In this document: in pieces, positions 11,256-32,654 of the stretch
Layout: each line of letters begins with the position of its first letter
Position numbering within the stretch: the stretch's first letter is position 1
Assembly (NCBI GenBank): GCA_028278785.1
Contig: JAPYOG010000290.1
Coordinates: 1 to 38,203 of the forward strand
DNA: 38,203 nt
From: Candidatus Poriferisocius anaerobius
GTDB taxonomy: Bacteria > Actinomycetota > Acidimicrobiia > Acidimicrobiales > Bin134
Reading direction: 5' to 3'
The notes under the pieces: generated by a model
What the model was told of the DNA's origin: nothing
Database searches by the model: none
The model's input: the letters and a program-made list of their open reading frames with translations, nothing else
Position numbers and translations under genes: made by a program

Positions 11256-14200
11256 TCATATCGCCCCTGAGCGGATGTGGGGCTCACAGGCGTCCTCGGC
11301 CTCTTTTGCCGCTTCGCCGAGGGTTGCCGGCCCCGAGCGGCAGTTCAGCATGAACAGGGGCTGGTAGAGGGCCTCCAGCTTTTCAGAGGCGGTGGCAAGG
11401 TGCTCAAGGGCCCGTTGGCGGGCCACCGCGGCCCGCCGAGTGCGGGGCAGCGCGCAGATGTCGGCCACACCATCGAGGTCGCTGTCATAGGCATAGGTGA
11501 TCGGGCCTCCCAGGCTGAAGTTGACGCAGAAGTCCCGCCCGTTGATGATCCCGGAGAAGAACAGCCGCTCGTCCTCGACGTAGTGGTCTTCACCGGCGTC
11601 TGCCCTGGAAGTCTGGGCTCCGGCAGCGCCATTGGGTGAAGCCGACCCGCCTGGGGAATTGACGGGGAAGTCCCGGTACTGCTGGCACTCGTCTTCGGCC
11701 TCTTTGTCTGGTTCGCCGAAGGTGTCGGGCACAGAGCGGCATTCCTCGGCAAAGCGGGCGATGAAGATCGCCTGCTCCAGGAACGCCAGCTCCTCGATGG
11801 TCTTCTGGTGGGCCACCGCCACTCGGCGAGTGCTGCGGAGCGAGCACACGTCGGCCACTCCGTCCTTGTCGTTGTCGAGGGGGTAGGTGGCAGGCCCGCC
11901 CAAGCTGGAGTTCAAGCAGAAGTCCGGTCCGTCGACCACGCCCGAGTAGAGCCTCGCGTCGTCGGGGGCATCAGCGGGAACGGGAGGTTCTATTGCGCCG
12001 CCGGGACTCCAGGCCACAGAGGCTGCGGGGACGGTGAAGCTGAACAGCGTGGACAAGAGCACGGGCCTGCCGCTCTCACGAGCCGCAGTGTGTATTCGGG
12101 CTCGGAGCCGGCTGCCGGTGACGGTGACGGTTCGGGAGGTGCCGGTGATCCGGATCCGCGCTTTGTCCAGCCTGCCCGAAGCCCCTGCGCCGCCATCCAC
12201 CGCCATGCCGATGAGGTGGCCCACCGCGGTGTCTGGGTGGTCATTCAGCCACCCGTTGAACTCCGCTGCGGTATAAGACCTGCTCCAAGAGGCATTCGGG
12301 TTGTCTTGATGGGCGTCGAGAGGATCGGGTTTGGCGCTCAGATAGGGAAGATCGGTGGCGAACACATAGCCGCTGCGCTCGGTTTGACCGCCGTTCGACG
12401 AAGAGTAGAAGGCTCTGATGGGCGCGCCGCCGTGGAACAGCACCTGCCCGGCAGTGCTCTCCACCGCTTGGAGCCAGGTTGCAGCATCGGCGTGCTTCTC
12501 CCGGGTGTCGCCAGCGTAGGCCTGGTCCCAGGTGCTGGCATAAAGGTCGAACGGCCGCCCCCAGGAGTCGGAAGCCCGCCGCTCCCGCAGGGTGGCGGTG
12601 GCGTAGCTGCGGGCCGCGATGGCCTGGGCCTGGTGGGCTGCCAGCGGCCAGTCCATCGGGGTTTCGGCGATGCCCCGGAGGTAGCGCTCCATCGGCAGGG
12701 AGTCCACGATCACATAGAACTGGCCCGGATCTCCGCCGGTGGGCACCAGGTTGATGCGGCCGTGGGAGTAGGAGCGCCCGGTGTTGGACACCCTCACCGA
12801 CGTGCCGGTGGCGAAGTGGAGTTGGGCGGTCCGGCCGGCACAGCCGCTCCCGCACGCATCGGCGCCGTTGTACCTGACATGCCAGTGCCCCACATGGCGG
12901 ACGAAGGTGACCGGGGTGCCTGGGGCCACTCGGATCTCGCCCTGGCCGTCGATGGTGATGCGGTTGGCGCCCTGGGGGATCAGCGTGGTGCTCGTGGTGG
13001 TGGACAGGTGGATCCCGATGGAGTCCTCGGCATGTGCCGGCGCAGGAGGGACGTCGGGCGCCGGGGTCGTCGGGAGGCCTGGCGCCGCGGCGGGCAGCGC
13101 GCCGTGGGGGTCATCGAGGAATTCGGCGATTGTCAGCGAGTCGACCGTGATGTGGAACCGGCTTGGATCCCCGGCCACGGCCACGAGGTTGATGCGCCCG
13201 TGGGAGTAGGAGCGCCCGGTGCTGGACACGGCCACCGACGTGCCGGTGGCGAAGTGGAGTTGGACGGTCTCGCCGGCACAGCCGCTCCCGCACACATCGG
13301 CGCTGCCGAATTGGATCCTCCACAGGCCGTCGACCCTTGTCACTGCTATGGGGGATCCCGCCGGCGCCCGGACCAGCCCCTGTCCTGCGTGGGGGATGTC
13401 TGCGTCGTCCACGGTGATCCGGTTGAGCCCTTCGGGGGTGAGCGTGGTGGCCTGCGCGGTGGCCAGCAAGATCTGCACCGAGCCTTCAGCCGGCTCGGCG
13501 GCGCCCTGCGAGCCTCCGGGATCGTTGTGGGGGTCATCGAGGAATTTGGCGATTGTCAGCGAGTCGACCGTGATGTGGAACCGGCTTGGATCCCCGGCCA
13601 CGGCCACGAGGTTGATGCGCCCGTGGGAGTAGGAGCGCCCGGTGGTGGACACGGCCACCGCGGTGCCGGTGGCGAAGTGGAGTTGGGCGGTCTGGCCGGC
13701 GCACCCCCCGGGGCAGAGGTCGGCGCCGTTATAGCTGATATGCCAGCGGTCTTGGTGGCGGGAGAACGAGACTGGGGTTCCCGCCGGGGGACGGGCCGCG
13801 TCTTCGCTGCCGACCGGGATGTTCTGGTTCTCGACGGTGATCCGGTTGAGCCCTTCGGGGGTCAGCACGGTTGAGCCTGTGGTGGCCAGCAAAACCCGGG
13901 GCGAGCCGTCGGCCGTCGTCGGGATGGCCTCAGCGCCCGGAGTCTGCGCCGGGTTGGGGGAGGTGCTCGGAGCGGGGTCGGGGCGACCGTAGTTCTCCAC
14001 GAGGTTTGCGCCCTCGTAGTAGAAGCCCAGTATCTCCGCCGCGCTGTGCCCGGCCTCGGATCTAGCTCGGGCCCCCCACTGGCTCATTCCCACACCGTGG
14101 CCCCAGCCGCGGCCGTTGAAGGAGATTGCCGCTGCGGGATCAACTATGAGCACCGGTGAGGGGTCGGCGCTGTCTTGAGCCGACGAGGGGTCGGCGGCCA

Positions 14201-14285
14201 GCACAGCAGTCGCCGCCAACAGCGCCTGGGCGAGGAGGTGGCTTGTGCGAGGGCGGTTCAAAACCGACGACCGCTGACAGTGCAT
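11256..14285 (-). CDS. Secreted SpoIID/LytB-domain lytic transglycosylase with internal and C-terminal repeats (exact start uncertain)
   Basis: Signal peptide (..PSSAQD); GRGWGHGVGMSQWGA..ILGFYY; ERYLRGIAETP..AQAIAARSYA; DQAY; FYSSSNGGQT. Confidence 0.85.
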   Translation of the reverse strand: MHCQRSSVLNRPRTSHLLAQALLAATAVLAADPSSAQDSADPSPVLIVDPAAAISFNGRGWGHGVGMSQWGARARSEAGHSAAEILGFYYEGANLVENYGRPDPAPSTSPNPAQTPGAEAIPTTADGSPRVLLATTGSTVLTPEGLNRITVENQNIPVGSEDAARPPAGTPVSFSRHQDRWHISYNGADLCPGGCAGQTAQLHFATGTAVAVSTTGRSYSHGRINLVAVAGDPSRFHITVDSLTIAKFLDDPHNDPGGSQGAAEPAEGSVQILLATAQATTLTPEGLNRITVDDADIPHAGQGLVRAPAGSPIAVTRVDGLWRIQFGSADVCGSGCAGETVQLHFATGTSVAVSSTGRSYSHGRINLVAVAGDPSRFHITVDSLTIAEFLDDPHGALPAAAPGLPTTPAPDVPPAPAHAEDSIGIHLSTTTSTTLIPQGANRITIDGQGEIRVAPGTPVTFVRHVGHWHVRYNGADACGSGCAGRTAQLHFATGTSVRVSNTGRSYSHGRINLVPTGGDPGQFYVIVDSLPMERYLRGIAETPMDWPLAAHQAQAIAARSYATATLRERRASDSWGRPFDLYASTWDQAYAGDTREKHADAATWLQAVESTAGQVLFHGGAPIRAFYSSSNGGQTERSGYVFATDLPYLSAKPDPLDAHQDNPNASWSRSYTAAEFNGWLNDHPDTAVGHLIGMAVDGGAGASGRLDKARIRITGTSRTVTVTGSRLRARIHTAARESGRPVLLSTLFSFTVPAASVAWSPGGAIEPPVPADAPDDARLYSGVVDGPDFCLNSSLGGPATYPLDNDKDGVADVCSLRSTRRVAVAHQKTIEELAFLEQAIFIARFAEECRSVPDTFGEPDKEAEDECQQYRDFPVNSPGGSASPNGAAGAQTSRADAGEDHYVEDERLFFSGIINGRDFCVNFSLGGPITYAYDSDLDGVADICALPRTRRAAVARQRALEHLATASEKLEALYQPLFMLNCRSGPATLGEAAKEAEDACEPHIRSGAI
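11280..11955 (-). repeat. Two tandem ~110-aa Cys-containing C-terminal domains with DxDxDG motifs
   Basis: SGVVDGPDFCLNSSLGGPATYPLDNDKDGVADVCSL versus SGIINGRDFCVNFSLGGPITYAYDSDLDGVADICAL. Confidence 0.85.
12700..13900 (-). repeat. Three tandem ~120-aa modules within the SpoIID gene
   Basis: Module ..LTPEGLNRITV..CAG.T.QLHFATGT.V.VS.TGRSYSHGRINLV..ITVDSL occurs three times; DNA at ~13104-13277 and ~13527-13700 (offset 423) is nearly identical. Confidence 0.9.
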
Positions 14286-14422
14286 AGAACATCCAAAACA
14301 AGGTGGCCGCCCGCCGAGCCATTCTCCCAGCCTCCGCTGCGCTCATCAAATACCCCGCTCGACAGGGCATCTCGTGCCGCCGGGATATTTGCACTCAGGG
14401 CACTTGTGTCAAGCGCTTTCAC

Positions 14423-14451
14423 ATTGTAATATAGGCAAATAGATTGTAATA
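14423..14451. promoter_or_regulatory. ATTGTAATA direct repeat in an AT-rich divergent promoter region
   Basis: Exact 9-mer at 14423-14431 and 14443-14451 (20-bp period). Confidence 0.35.
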
Positions 14452-14514
14452 GCCACAAAATTATCGCACCCACTGCTCAGGGCGCCTTCACGAATTGAAA
14501 AGGAGAAGCACAAG

Positions 14515-14886
14515 ATGGCGTCGATTCTGATAGTGGTGCAGGTCACCGGGGTTGGGGTCTCGATGTTCTTGCTGGGTTTGCTGTACCCTCAACTGCGAAA
14601 CCGCTGGTACGGGCGGCGGCTCGCCCGTGTCAAGGCGGTCGGGCCCCAGGGCGAGGAAGTGACCAGAGACGACATCCGCCGCGAGCTTTTGCGCGATCCG
14701 GTCGCCGCCGAGTTGTTCCTCGATGACGACACTCCTGAGGATGTGCAGCGGTATCTGTACCTGGAGGCCGAGCGGCGGGCGATGCTGCGCAAGTGCAACC
14801 GGCTCGACGACGATGAAAACGACTTGTTCGCACCGCCCCGCCGGCCGGGCCCCGACCCTGGTTTCCGGGGCTGCAACGAGTTGTAG
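14515..14886 (+). CDS. Hypothetical protein with an N-terminal TM helix
   Basis: AAGGAG SD upstream; hydrophobic N-terminus followed by a charged domain. Confidence 0.65.
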   Translation: MASILIVVQVTGVGVSMFLLGLLYPQLRNRWYGRRLARVKAVGPQGEEVTRDDIRRELLRDPVAAELFLDDDTPEDVQRYLYLEAERRAMLRKCNRLDDDENDLFAPPRRPGPDPGFRGCNEL

Positions 14887-14910
14887 AAGCTCTGGCGCCC
14901 GTATGGACCG

Positions 14911-16005
14911 CTAGGTGATGGCCAGCATCCGGTCGAGGGCGATGCGGGCATCGGCGGCAACCTCGGGATCGACGGTGATGCGGTTGCGAACCTTGCCCTC
15001 CGCCAGGCCCTCCAGCGTCCAGGCCAGGTGGGCGGCGTCTATGCGGAACATCGTCGAGCACGGGCAGATGAGCGGATCTAGCGATACCACCGTCTTGTCG
15101 GGTGTCTCGCGGTTGAGCCGGTTCACCAGATGGATCTCGGTGCCCACTCCTATAACCGAGCCGGTCGGCGCAGCGGCCACGGCCTTGATGATGTGGTCGG
15201 TGGAGCCAACCTGATCGGCCAGGGTACACACCTCCCGGCTGCACTCCGGGTGTGCCACCACGATGCCGCCGGGGTACTCGGCCCGGAACGAGGCCACATG
15301 GTCGGGCTGGAACCTCTGGTGTACCGAGCAGTGCCCCCTCCACAGCAGCAGCACCGACTCCTTGCACTCGGCCTCGGTAAGGCCGCCCAGATCGAAGCGG
15401 GGGTTCCACACCGCCATGTCGCTCTCCCCGTAGCCCATGTCGAACCCCGTGTTGCGCCCCAGGTGCTGGTCGGGAAAGAACAGCACCTGCCCGCCCCGCT
15501 CCAGCGCCCAGGCGAGCACCGCCCGGGCGTTGGACGACGTACACACCGCCCCGCCGTGGCGGGCCGTGAATGCTTTCAGGCCGGCAGACGAGTTCATGTA
15601 GGTGATGGGCACCACCCGGCCGATGTCGGTCACCCGGCCCAGCTCCTCCCATGCCTCTTCCACCTGCTCGATGTCGGCCATGTCGGCCATGGAGCAGCCC
15701 GCGTTCAGGTCGGGCAGCACCACCTGCTGGTGTACGCCGGTGAGGATGTCGGCCGACTCGGCCATGAAGTGTACGCCGCAGAACACGATGAACTCGGCTT
15801 CCGGGCGCTGCTGGGCCAGCACCGACAGGCGGAACGAGTCGCCCCGGGCGTCGGCCCAGGCCATGACCTCGTCGCGCTGGTAGTGATGCCCGAGAATGAA
15901 CAGCCGGTCGCCCAGAGCCTCCTTGGCGCGGCCGATCCAGTCCGCCAGCCGCTCGGGCGATGCCGTTGTGTACCGCTCGGGGAGCGGCCGCTGAACGCGC
16001 AACAT
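14911..16005 (-). CDS. nadA: Quinolinate synthase NadA
   Basis: GHHYQ, FCGVHFMAE, AGCSMA, CSVH, HPEC, GST, CPCSTM; ATG at 16005 with GGAGG SD. Confidence 0.96.
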   Translation of the reverse strand: MLRVQRPLPERYTTASPERLADWIGRAKEALGDRLFILGHHYQRDEVMAWADARGDSFRLSVLAQQRPEAEFIVFCGVHFMAESADILTGVHQQVVLPDLNAGCSMADMADIEQVEEAWEELGRVTDIGRVVPITYMNSSAGLKAFTARHGGAVCTSSNARAVLAWALERGGQVLFFPDQHLGRNTGFDMGYGESDMAVWNPRFDLGGLTEAECKESVLLLWRGHCSVHQRFQPDHVASFRAEYPGGIVVAHPECSREVCTLADQVGSTDHIIKAVAAAPTGSVIGVGTEIHLVNRLNRETPDKTVVSLDPLICPCSTMFRIDAAHLAWTLEGLAEGKVRNRITVDPEVAADARIALDRMLAIT

Positions 16006-16131
16006 GATTTTGAGAACCTCCACGAGGTATGGGGAACTCCGATTGACGGCCGGTGGGGGCAGCCGGGTCGCCTCGCCACGGGGATGTCGGCCTCAGAGTT
16101 TGATATGTCGCTGGATACCCGGCCAGCGTGG
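16006..16131 (-). ncRNA. Structured nadA 5' leader; candidate NAD+-I (nadA motif)-like riboswitch
   Basis: TATGAT -10 at 16143-16138; nested stems AACUCUGA/UCGGAGUU and GGCCG/CGGCC, one-sided bulge ACAUCCCC, GUGG/CCAC stem; ACCUC/GAGGU hairpin covering the SD. Confidence 0.55.
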
Positions 16132-16240
16132 GCTGCAATCATACCCTGGCCGCACGGGGAATCCAAGAGGAGCACACAGCCGGTGCTGCGCCGGGCCCAG
16201 AGCAGCCCTGCCGCGGCTCGGCTCATAGGATAAAGGCGCC

Positions 16241-17945
16241 ATGCTGACCCGCCCGCCCACCGGCGCCATCCCCGACACTGCGGGCTCCTACCAGTTCAAA
16301 GACCGCCACGGGAGGATCATCTACGTGGGCAAGGCCAAGAACCTGCGGTCCCGGCTCGGAAGCTATTTTCAGAACCCGGCGCACTTGCCGGCGCGCACCG
16401 CGCAGATGGTGGCCCAGGCTGAGTCGGTGGAGTGGATCCAGGTGGACACCGAGGTCGACGCCCTGCTGTTGGAGCACAGCCTCATCCAGCAGCACCAGCC
16501 CCGGTTCAACGTCCGCTATCGGGACGACAAGAGCTATCCGTTCCTGTGCGTGACCATGGCGGACGAGTGGCCCCGCGCCATGGTCATACGCGGCCGCAAG
16601 AAGAAGGGCAACCGCTATTTCGGCCCGTACGGGCACGCCTACGCCATCCGGGAGACCCTCGACCAGCTTCTGCGCACGTTCCCCGTCCGCACTTGCAGCG
16701 ACAGCAAGTTCAACCACCATGCCCGCCTGGGACGGCCGTGCCTGCTGCTGCATATCGAGAAGTGCGCGGGGCCGTGCGTGGGCATGGTGGAGCGAGGCCG
16801 CTACAACCAGATGCTGGAGGACTTGCTGGCCTTTTTGGACGGCGACACCGATGAGGTGGTCAAGCGGCTGGAAGGCGATATGGCCGAGGCCGCAGCCGCT
16901 TTGGAGTTCGAGCAGGCCGCCCGATGCCGGGATCGGCTGGCCAGCGTCCGCAAGGCCATCGAGAGCCAAGAGATGGTGGGAGGCCGCTCGGAGGACTACG
17001 ACGTGGTCGGTCTGGCAGACGACGAGCTGGAGGCTGCCTGTCAGGTTTTCTATGTTCGCAAGGGACGAGTGATGGGACGCCGGGGGTTCATCGTGGACAA
17101 GGCCGGTCCTATCAGGCGCCCCGAGTTGCTGGGCAGGGTGTTGGAGCGGCTGTATTTCGAGGATAACCCGCTGGGCAGCCCCAAACAGGTGCTAGTGCCC
17201 GACTTGCCCGAGAACCAAGCGCTGTACGAGGAGTGGCTGCGGCACCAGCGGGGGTCGAGGGTGGCCATCTCGGTGCCCCAGCGGGGGGCAAAGCGCAAGC
17301 TCCAGGAGACGGTCGCCCGCAACGCCGCCGACGCCTTCGCCCGGCACCGCCTCAAGCGCAGCACCGACCACAACAGCCGGGCTCGGGCGCTCAACGATCT
17401 CCAGCGATACCTCGGCCTGCCCGAGGCGCCTCTGCGGATCGAGTGCTACGACATGAGCCACTTCCAGGGGTCCGACTATGTGGGCTCCATGGTGGTCATG
17501 GAGGACGGCCTGCCCCGCAAGTCGGAATACCGCCGGTTCAAGGTGCGAACCGTGGCCGGCAACGACGACGGCCGACCTGGGCCTGGACGGCGAGATCTTT
17601 CCCGCCGGGCTGGCCAAGGAGTTCGAGCTGCTGTTCGTGCCCGGCCGGCCCGACCCGGTGGAGATTCCCCGGCCCTCGGAGAGCCTGTACTTGTTGCAGC
17701 GCATCCGCGACGAGAGCCACCGCTTCGCCAACGACTACCACCGCCAGCTCCGGGGCAAGCGGATGACCCGATCCTCGCTGGACGGGATCGCGGGCCTGGG
17801 CCCCGCCCGGCGGACTCGGCTGGTGAAGGAGCTGGGAGGGGTGCGGGCGGTGGGGAAAGCGCCGCTCGAAGACCTGCTGGCGCTGGGCTGGCTTCCCGAC
17901 GCGGTGGCCCATTGCGTCTACGAGAAACTCCACGGTCCCGGGTAA
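16241..17945 (+). pseudogene. uvrC: Excinuclease ABC subunit C with internal deletion and frameshift at ~17570
   Basis: GIY-YIG N-terminus (IYVGKAKNL), RIECYDMSH and GNDD in one frame; ADLGL..GLAKEFE..LQRIRDESHRFA..HhH continues in another frame; the DGGxGQ segment is absent. Confidence 0.85.
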
Positions 17946-31167: not shown

Positions 31168-31824
31168 TCAGGGGCCGAGGGCCGTGATGGGGGTGACCTG
31201 GACGCCGTCGGGGCGGGTATAGGCGAAGCCCAAAGCGGTGATGACCACCATGGCGACAAGCTGTTCGGCGCGGTCAGCAGCCACCTTGTCGCGCACGCGT
31301 CGCAGCGACTGGGCCGCGGCCTCGATCGCGTCGCCGCCCCCCAGCTTGACCTCTACTGCAAGCCACCTCCCGTCGGGCACCTCGACGATGGCGTCGGCTT
31401 CGGTGCCCGCAGCGTCGCGCAGCTGGAAGATGCGCCCGTCGTGGGGCTGCGCTAGGACGCGCAGATCCCTCACAACGAGTGACTCGAACAGCAGGCCGAG
31501 TGCGGACATATCGCCCATCAGCCGCTCGGCATTGGCGCCGAGAGCGGCAGCCGCTAGCGATGGATCGGCCAGATGCCACTTGGCCGACTTCCGCAACGGT
31601 GCCCGAGAACGCAGGCGGACCGACCACGCGGGCTGTTCTTCGACCACGAATATCCGCCGCAACGCGTCGAGGTAGGCGCGAACCGTGTGGCGGTGCAGCG
31701 GATCCGGCTCCGCATCCGCGCCCAGCGTGCTCATGCTGGCTTCGGTCGCAACGTTTCGCGCCAGCGACTGGAGCAACCGCTCCACACCGGCGGGACTTCG
31801 CACGGCGCCATCGCCGACGAGCAC
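31168..31824 (-). pseudogene. C-terminal fragment of an AAA-ATPase/DUF4143 protein
   Basis: TVRAYLDAL..K.HLADPSLA..GLLFESLV..EADAIVE..AVEVK; the N-terminal P-loop is absent. Confidence 0.8.
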
Positions 31825-31884
31825 GCTCGGCTTCGAGTGCTGCTACTACATGAGCCTTCGATCCGCTCGAAAGCCTCTTCGGTC

Positions 31885-32237
31885 GGCGGCGGCCCCCGTG
31901 ACCAGACAGCCATCACCATTTCCGACCCCGAGGTTGAGAATGCCTGTGTGAACCGGTGCAAGGCATGGCAGCGCACCAAGTACGACGGCGGCTGGGGCGC
32001 CATCACCTGGCCTGCCGAATACGGCGGCCGGGGACTGAGCGGCATCCACGACGGTATCTTCAAGGAGGAGGAGGCCAAGCGGGTGTCGGCCACCGGGGTG
32101 TTCGCGGTGGGCATCGGCATGACCGGCCCCACCATCATCGCCCACGGCACCGCCAGCCAAAAGGAGCGGTTCCTGCCCGCCATGCTCAAGGGCGAGGTGG
32201 TGTGGTGCCAGCTTTTCTCTGAGTCGGTGGCCGGGTC
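31885..32237 (+). pseudogene. N-terminal fragment of an acyl-CoA dehydrogenase
   Basis: AWQR..GGWGAITWPAEYGGRG..GPTIIAHGTASQKERFLP..WCQLFSE, after which similarity stops. Confidence 0.8.
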
Positions 32238-32299
32238 TTTTCTCATCCCAGCCCTCGGGTGCCTCTTCGGTGTACATGATCCCGGCGGTCAGAAGGTGT

Positions 32300-32654
32300 G
32301 CGACGCCAAGCGCCCGATGAGGATCGTCATGCGATCGGGCGTGCCCTTTGCCTTCGCCGGACTGTGGTCAGTGTGGACCGATCCCGAAGGCAACCGCATT
32401 CCGTCGCGCACCATCATCACCACCGCGGCAAACGAAGTGCTCAAGCCGATCCATCATCGGATGCCGGTTATCCTGCCGAAGAGGCGGAGGGCCTCTGGCT
32501 GGACACCCACCTCGACGACAGCGACGCGTTGGCCCAACTTCTCGAGCCATCCTCCGCCGACGCTATGGAAGCCTATGATGTATCCCGCTTGGCGAACTCG
32601 GCGTCCAACGACCTCCCCGAGGTAACCGCGCCGCTGCCTCAACTCCCCTTCTAA
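32300..32654 (+). pseudogene. C-terminal fragment of an SRAP (SOS response-associated peptidase), frameshifted at ~32477
   Basis: PFAFAGLWSVW..TIITTAANEVLKPIHHRMPVIL, then in another frame WLD..LLEP..MEAYDVSRLANSASND. Confidence 0.85.

Follow-up and report, generated by a model that had tools for sequence, protein, structure and literature searches.

The closest described system to the RNA reported here is NAD+-I, the nadA motif, which consists of two tandem bulged stem-loops located 5′ of nadA in Acidobacteria, each possessing a ACANCCCC bulge (PMC7297122, PMC6859854). In domain 1, a 7-bp P1a leads into a GYG internal loop, and the two guanines of this loop pair with two cytosines of the bulge; in the crystal structure, a conserved C:G pair second from the bulge reads the adenine of the ligand, while the bulge holds Mg2+ ions that bind the ligand diphosphate (PMC7297122). 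The second domain has its own ACANCCC(C) bulge and carries the RBS in its P1′ (PMC7297122, PMC6859854). Isolated domain 1 recognizes the ADP moiety alone, and full-length NAD+-I does not discriminate against ATP (PMC7297122, PMC10702441). These properties, together with a second domain that is without a clear ligand, make NAD+-I a puzzle, and no single-domain nadA riboswitch was known as of 2023 (PMC10702441).

Two further systems are relevant for comparison. The ubiB motif, of which nine representatives were reported from Nocardia, is a variant of nadA-motif domain 1 (PMC6859854). It shares its phylum, Actinomycetota, with the leader RNA described below and consists of a single ACANCCCC-type aptamer followed by a plain RBS hairpin, an arrangement that the leader RNA may have in common with it (PMC6859854); by its description, it differs in retaining the 7-bp spacing and the internal loop, in its position upstream of ubiB rather than nadA, and in having no reported pseudoknot (PMC6859854, PMC7297122). 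NAD+-II, the pnuC motif of Streptococcus, is likewise a pseudoknot-using cis-regulatory RNA of NAD+ metabolism that exerts translational control (PMC7749635, PMC10085692), but it has another fold, recognizes the nicotinamide end of its ligand, is associated with pnuC and belongs to Firmicutes. Among the 4227 families of Rfam 15, no model matches the leader RNA, and a full-text literature search on NAD+, nadA, ubiB and Acidimicrobiia riboswitches, with most subscription journals outside its coverage, returned no description of it.

A conserved folded RNA upstream of nadA

The window, by which we refer to the whole 38,203-nucleotide stretch of DNA that was analyzed, encodes the quinolinate synthase gene nadA on its minus strand (14911..16005; Pfam PF02445 (NadA), E 8.5e-93), the gene that would be regulated, with an ATG start codon read from the sequence at 16005-16003. 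The divergent uvrC gene starts at 16241 on the plus strand, and all elements of the leader RNA fall on the minus strand in the 235-nt gap between the two genes. Every element that a preliminary description of this leader had listed was found in place; the kissing-loop pseudoknot detailed below was absent from that description. On the other side of nadA, a 625-nt gap (14286-14910) separates its stop codon from the next minus-strand gene, which encodes a 1009-aa SpoIID-domain protein (11256-14285); the small ORFs in this gap are without a Pfam match, and no Rfam family was found there.

The structured leader spans 96 nt (16130-16035, minus strand, as for all elements that follow), after which come the SD hairpin and then the nadA start. 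From the 5′ end, the fold begins with the P0 hairpin (16109..16128), in which CGCUGG and CCAGCG enclose the loop CCGGGUAU, and continues through the linker J0/1 (ACAUAUCA; 16101..16108), which contains ACAUAUC, into the 13-bp P1. The 5′ strand of P1 (16088..16100) is composed of an outer segment AACUCUGA (16100-16093), which pairs with UCGGAGUU (16042-16035), and an inner segment GGCCG (16092-16088), which pairs with CGGCC (16052-16048); on the 3′ strand (16035..16052), the two segments are separated by the one-sided bulge GUCAA. Above P1 lies the one-sided 8-nt bulge ACAUCCCC (16080..16087), which is of the ACANCCCC type and is the proposed ligand pocket. The distal stem (16053..16079) comprises the 4-bp P1a, GUGG/CCAC (16079-16076 with 16056-16053), a small asymmetric internal loop with CGA opposite C, the 3-bp P1b, GGC/GCC (16072-16070 with 16060-16058), and the 9-nt loop GACCCGGCU. 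This distal loop forms the pseudoknot: its ACCCGG (16063..16068) pairs with CCGGGU in the P0 loop (16117..16122), so that 16122-16117 face 16068-16063. The SD hairpin, ACCUC-GUG-GAGGU (16016..16028), covers the GGAGG SD at 16021-16017.

Pair counts were obtained from an alignment (A5) of 100 distinct leaders, from which it is evident that the leader is a conserved folded RNA in which all six helices covary. Overall, paired cells amount to 95.8%, and both sides have changed in 28 of the 32 pairs; covariation scores 0.404 as compared to 0.153 in shuffles, with none of 500 shuffles reaching the observed values, and slid controls of the nested helices are 25-49% paired. The nested helices were fitted by the covariance model, which biases these counts towards the structure. 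By helix, changes on both sides were recorded for 6/6 pairs of P0 (95.5% of cells paired), 8/8 pairs of the outer and 4/5 pairs of the inner segment of P1, 3/4 pairs of P1a and 3/3 pairs of P1b. Support for the pseudoknot is independent of the fitting because the pseudoknot is not part of the model. In the general form CCNGGU of the P0 loop with ACCN′GG of the distal loop, 92.6% of its cells are paired, and its covariation score of 0.203 exceeds the shuffle value of 0.065, with 0/500 reaching it and slid controls 6-50% paired. The middle pair alone takes the forms UA (68 leaders), CG (15), GC (9) and AU (2), with 3 others. The preliminary description had proposed a folded nadA leader, and both the bulge and the stems are indeed conserved in orthologous nadA leaders.

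The unpaired regions are conserved to different degrees. Linker positions are moderately conserved, at 60-87% each across the 100 leaders, and the 3′-strand bulge of P1 varies both in sequence and in length (2-5 nt), its last letter usually being A. Between P1a and P1b, a single nucleotide makes up the 3′ side of the internal loop in 89 of 100 leaders (C in 86), while the 5′ side has 1-4 nt with a G present in 97. We also observed that the linker, (CG)ACAUAUC, starts with ACAU immediately after CG, as does the main bulge, (CG)ACAUCCCC; this repeat may be the relic of a duplication, or it may provide a second contact surface.

Three divergent members replace P1a, the internal loop and P1b by an uninterrupted 8-bp helix, and two of the three form the pseudoknot with a single-stranded 5′ tail rather than with a hairpin loop. 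Since the divergent members preserve both an 8-bp helix and the pseudoknot, the constant feature of the family, as read from these sequences, is the distance of about eight helical layers from the bulge to the pseudoknot. A subtype represented by L262 and L263 (genomes G331 and G335) possesses a continuous 8-bp distal helix closed by the loop ACGGGAAC, which finds its complement in a single-stranded UUCCCG at the extreme 5′ end; in these two leaders, ~80 nt and two further hairpins lie between the aptamer and the SD sequence.

The 5′ end of the RNA can be approximated from the promoter. A -10 element, TATGAT (16138..16143), was recognized in the preliminary description from the sequence, and its position in homologous leaders bears the assignment out: among 100 leaders, 90 TANNNT hexamers end 3-7 nt 5′ of model position 1, at the first hairpin, and every other offset within the upstream 60 nt counts 0-5. 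Because the hexamers cluster 3-7 nt before the structure, the RNA should begin at the foot of P0; for the window, we infer a transcription start at ~16131-16129 and hence a leader of ~125 nt. A consensus promoter scan returned no full sigma-70 site at its threshold. Considered as a single sequence, the leader does not stand out: its minimum-free-energy z-score is -0.09, and 87 of 200 shuffles fold as well or better. At gathering thresholds, Rfam annotated only tRNA in the window and no family at the leader; at E<=10 in the 401 nt around the leader, the one match, to Virus_CITE_4 on the plus strand, was spurious.

The proposed bulge pocket and NAD+-I

We compared the leader RNA with NAD+-I element by element. 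Three likenesses are apparent: i) both RNAs lie in the 5′ UTR of nadA, and in both P1 is separated from P1a by a one-sided ACANCCCC bulge of 8 nt, ii) in both, a C:G pair stands second from the bulge and a G:C pair opens P1a, which often starts with GUGG/CCAC, and iii) in both, a helix containing the RBS follows the aptamer, with translational repression presumed. The bulge is exact to the ACANCCCC consensus in 81 of 100 leaders, and the rest are one position off with the exception of two, namely L061, which is without the bulge, and one leader with a 7-nt bulge. The variants include ACAACCCC (50 leaders), ACAUCCCC (26), ACACCCCC (5), ACAUACCC (5) and ACAUCACC (3), and the final two cytosines are conserved at 99-100%. 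Both flanking pairs are invariant in all 100 leaders, the C:G pair second from the bulge in P1 (16089 with 16051) and the G:C pair opening P1a. The bulge and flanking pairs thus match the NAD+-I pocket, in agreement with the preliminary description (PMC7297122), and at the level of sequence the pocket motif of NAD+-I domain 1 is reproduced in the leader RNA, which, as far as can be judged from this, would function at the pocket as NAD+-I does.

The exceptional leader L061 (genome G124), which also precedes nadA, has lost the ACANCCCC bulge in its entirety but retains the pseudoknot, the distal stem, P0 and P1; the switch may have decayed in this leader, or it may operate independently of a ligand.

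Genuine NAD+-I sequences were collected for comparison. The Rfam model of the motif, RF03013 (gathering threshold, 37.5 bits), gave two tandem matches of 40-62 bits in each of 8 genomes among 141 Acidobacteriota genomes, and domain 1 in these reads ...GCA-ACANCCCC-GUGG(or GUAG)NNN-G...GYG-NNNCCAC-UGC.... The preliminary description had regarded GUGG/CCAC as a compensatory departure from NAD+-I; this reading does not hold, as P1a already starts with GUGG in 6 of the 8 genuine domain 1 sequences that were fetched. The claim of a new phylum for the pocket likewise has to be narrowed: the leader RNA occurs in Actinomycetota (Acidimicrobiia) whereas NAD+-I is found in Acidobacteria, but the ubiB variant of domain 1 had been reported from Nocardia (PMC6859854).

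Progressing outward from the pocket, the correspondence is lost. The leader P1a has 4 bp, followed by the asymmetric loop and 3 bp, ~8 layers in all, as opposed to the 7 bp and then the GYG/G loop of NAD+-I. A GYG on the 3′ strand is absent from the leaders, and no substitute contact for the bulge cytosines was identified. There is no counterpart to the tandem second domain of NAD+-I, with one bulge per leader, one model match per genome and nothing but a plain SD hairpin 3′ of the aptamer. Conversely, an extra 5′ hairpin (P0), a covarying pseudoknot and an extra one-sided bulge in P1 are present in the leader RNA only; P0 and the pseudoknot are not part of NAD+-I as it is described (PMC6859854, PMC7297122).

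The profile searches are in line with this divergence. At E<=10, RF03013 had no match at the leader, in either the 401 nt around it or the whole genome, nor at 20 related leaders; above its cut-off it matched 0/151 genomes of the class, while the positive control in Acidobacteriota worked. Sub-threshold RF03013 matches in 11 genomes of the class (E 2e-4 to 0.08) were dropped, none of them lying at a nadA leader. Five of the 11 were inspected: on our reading, three fall within coding sequences (those of an ABC ATPase, a methylase-like ORF and a further ORF), a fourth lies antisense between two genes of the reverse strand, and the fifth is without a following ORF of >=80 aa. A sub-threshold RF03013 match of 24.7 bits at L318 (G333:C1:3290769-3290847), which may be due to chance, combines a ACAUCCCC bulge with a 7-bp helix and carries GUG on its 3′ strand; it sits between two opposite-strand genes and is antisense to both. 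In the reverse direction, R1 and R2, the covariance models of the leader RNA described below, gave only local alignments at E 3-9 on the genuine NAD+-I loci, centered on the bulge, at 3/8 loci.

Taken together, three defining features of NAD+-I are absent from the leader RNA, namely the 7-bp P1a with its GYG loop, the tandem second domain and a match to RF03013. In view of the pocket match and the nadA context on the one hand and of these three absences on the other, the leader would therefore represent a variant architecture and not an ordinary NAD+-I.

Distribution and inheritance of the leader RNA

In a first survey, in which nadA loci were collected by a NadA protein search of 41 related genomes and the upstream DNA was read, the same element was present at 28/30 loci. 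Four of the element-bearing loci came from other families of the order, and compensatory changes were visible by eye. An alignment of 22 distinct leaders, with 97% of cells paired and 12 of 32 pairs changed on both sides, was used to build the covariance model R1. R1 returned exactly one match per genome in 87/151 genomes of the same order, a tally that takes in two unpublished genomes (G066 and G089), and one match each in 46/151 genomes of the class Acidimicrobiia, including one false match, G412 (E 0.006), which was rejected as it is without the bulge and inside an ORF. In an even sample of the phylum, R1 matched 4/151 genomes, all four within the class Acidimicrobiia; across ~140 genomes of other Actinomycetota classes, there was no true match to the model. 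The broader covariance model R2 gave three matches in other classes (E 0.014-0.09), which were rejected as no nadA was nearby.

A pattern scan of public genomes gave a consistent distribution. Of the 80 loci listed, 70 were confirmed by the model, and their record titles name Acidimicrobiia, Acidimicrobiales, Acidimicrobiaceae, Microthrixaceae, Iamiaceae and loosely labelled Actinomycetota metagenome assemblies. The remaining 10 of the listed loci were chance matches that fail the model and are without the bulge consensus; chance pattern matches fell in Streptomyces, Streptosporangium, Sphaerisporangium, Patulibacter, Antiquaquibacter and several Proteobacteria, and the scan thus gave no evidence for the motif outside Acidimicrobiia. 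The actinobacterial origin named in the preliminary description is therefore correct, with Acidimicrobiia as the class.

The genomic context is uniform at the regulated gene and variable beyond it. For all 100 leaders, tblastn placed the nadA start 14-92 nt 3′ of the motif end (P1), so that every copy examined is located at nadA; the candidate riboswitch is class-wide in Acidimicrobiia. The ubiB/aarF association of the Nocardia motif was not encountered, all 100 leaders preceding nadA and the matching record titles being those of Acidimicrobiia. The genes 3′ of nadA differ between loci (folD, a sugar epimerase, unknowns), and no nadB or nadC was found 3′ of nadA in the nine related loci examined; the RNA element therefore appears to control nadA alone.

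Identity to the window NadA is 52-57% for NAD+-I-linked Acidobacteriota and 48-61% for other Actinomycetota classes, in which nadA genes of the same type have no such leader RNA. A quick tree of 53 rows, none dropped and with L305 left out beforehand owing to its position at a contig end, recovered three clades, Acidimicrobiia (SH-aLRT 90), Acidobacteriota (100) and other Actinomycetota (96), with the relations among clades unresolved. Since the quick tree leaves the three clades in this state, identities and tree speak neither for nor against a co-transfer of nadA and riboswitch between Acidobacteriota and Acidimicrobiia. Two motif-less Acidimicrobiia NadA are nested among motif-bearing ones, which suggests vertical inheritance with occasional loss of the motif.

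In one other Actinomycetota family, five loci (L291-L294 and L299) encode NadA of 58-61% identity with no RNA motif upstream. L291-L294 share the word (A)TGTGCGCGCGTTCACGA, which reads TGTGCATCCGTTCACGA in L299, right after a -10-like hexamer; this conserved word resembles an operator for a protein, one that would overlap the promoter.

Putative expression platform and candidate readings

In NAD+-I and the ubiB motif, an aptamer is followed by an SD hairpin (PMC6859854), and the leader RNA has this layout at nadA, with a single aptamer and then a short SD hairpin of 4-6 bp that may correspond to the one of ubiB. Minimum-free-energy folding of the tail places the SD in a helix in 65/99 leaders. 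Typical hairpins are CUCCCC-GAA-GGGGG and CCUCC...GGAGG, and in most leaders it is the pyrimidine run right after P1 that pairs with the SD. The hairpin barely exceeds its shuffle control: in 79 leaders, the SD unpaired probability is 0.209, versus 0.251 in composition-preserving shuffles, and the observed value is below that of the shuffle in 51/79 leaders, a count which is overstated as the sequences are related. Because the shuffle control is nearly as good, much of the SD pairing stems from the C-rich composition of the tail. The SD lies in a small hairpin, as the preliminary description had proposed. In thermodynamic modelling of the 79 leaders, the SD unpaired probability did not depend on whether the aptamer was enforced (0.20), left unconstrained (0.19) or excluded (0.21), and no mutually exclusive anti-anti-SD helix was found.

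From these elements, a model for a cis-acting riboswitch on the nadA mRNA, with an aptamer and an expression platform, can be proposed. Transcription would start a few bases before P0, and the RNA folds into the long bulged stem formed by P1, P1a and P1b. The distal loop, ~8 layers above the bulge, kisses the P0 loop in a 5-6-bp pseudoknot that takes the place of the GYG tie. Binding of NAD+ or another ADP-moiety metabolite in the bulge pocket would then lock P1 and the pseudoknot. With the closed aptamer ending 8-12 nt before the SD, the single-stranded landing site would be removed, and the rigid aptamer could stack on or crowd the SD hairpin such that the 30S subunit is denied access; nadA translation would presumably fall when NAD+ is plentiful.

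On balance, the nadA leader is probably an NAD+-sensing riboswitch with a new architecture built around the NAD+-I pocket, repressed by its ligand at the level of translation. A more specific proposal, which we advance tentatively and consider doubtful as it stands, is that the leader RNA stands for a third class of NAD+ riboswitch architecture, in which the kissing-loop pseudoknot would clamp a single ACANCCCC ADP pocket, P0 and the ACAUAUC linker, which has to run back past the bulge in this fold, might supply the contacts to the nicotinamide side that NAD+-I domain 1 lacks, and one domain might in this manner tell NAD+ from ATP and ADP. Were this the case, one domain would read the whole cofactor, which NAD+-I has not been shown to do.

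The alternative that survives best retains the fold and exchanges the ligand. NaAD, NaMN, quinolinate, ADP-ribose or an ATP/ADP adenylate signal might be sensed instead of NAD+, with P0 and the pseudoknot serving as a second recognition surface. NAD+-I itself lends this some credence, its domain 1 responding only to ADP and its full-length form not rejecting ATP (PMC7297122, PMC10702441), as does the leader RNA, the distal half of which is unlike NAD+-I and the linker ACAUAUC of which is conserved without explanation. We nonetheless judge a different ligand rather unlikely, given that the exclusive link to nadA (100/100), together with a pocket motif identical to that of NAD+-I, favors the end product of the pathway, as for NAD+-I, and that no other gene association hints at a different ligand.

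Less probable still is that the leader serves as a recognition site for a protein or some other factor acting in trans, or acts as an mRNA-stability element, with its resemblance to the NAD+-I bulge being convergent or coincidental. No secondary-structure switch is detectable, the RNA is missing from other Actinomycetota classes although their NadA is of the same type, and the conserved DNA word over the promoter at five loci of one family suggests a protein operator there. Against this, seven specified positions of the 8-nt bulge and two invariant pairs match a solved pocket in the same gene context, and the conserved unpaired nucleotides are framed by covarying helices and a pseudoknot, an arrangement that is typical of metabolite aptamers. 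Further, no candidate protein gene is linked to the element, as the neighbors of nadA vary.

That the leader is an ordinary NAD+-I (nadA motif, RF03013) member missed by the Rfam model is highly improbable: gene context, bulge and flanking pairs are held in common and the weak local R1/R2 alignments fall exactly on genuine aptamers at 3/8 loci, but neither the 7-bp P1a with GYG nor the tandem second bulged domain is present, RF03013 has no match where its positive control works, and P0 and the pseudoknot lie outside NAD+-I as described (PMC6859854, PMC7297122).

An NAD+-sensing riboswitch of variant architecture would constitute a natural comparison for NAD+-I, one in which the same pocket is accompanied by a pseudoknotted 5′ hairpin instead of the GYG clamp and the second domain, still at nadA. 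It raises the questions of what constitutes a minimal NAD+/ADP sensor, how specificity for the nicotinamide end is achieved, and whether the pocket has arisen once or twice. It would also give access to the control of NAD synthesis throughout Acidimicrobiia, a class for which most genomes found were metagenome-assembled; no account of the regulation of NAD synthesis in this class turned up in the literature searched.

Two observations on the window itself are recorded here. The sponge metagenome DNA runs X1 and X3 each contain at least half of the sampled words of window positions 15400-16400, as does DNA run X2, which bears a coded organism name; X1 may be the source of the DNA, and the runs listed include none of RNA. 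Elsewhere in the window, a single ORF (31573-32625) matches Acyl-CoA_dh_N (residues 138-208) as well as a SRAP peptidase domain (244-313), an odd combination that could reflect either a fusion or an artefact of the reading frame.
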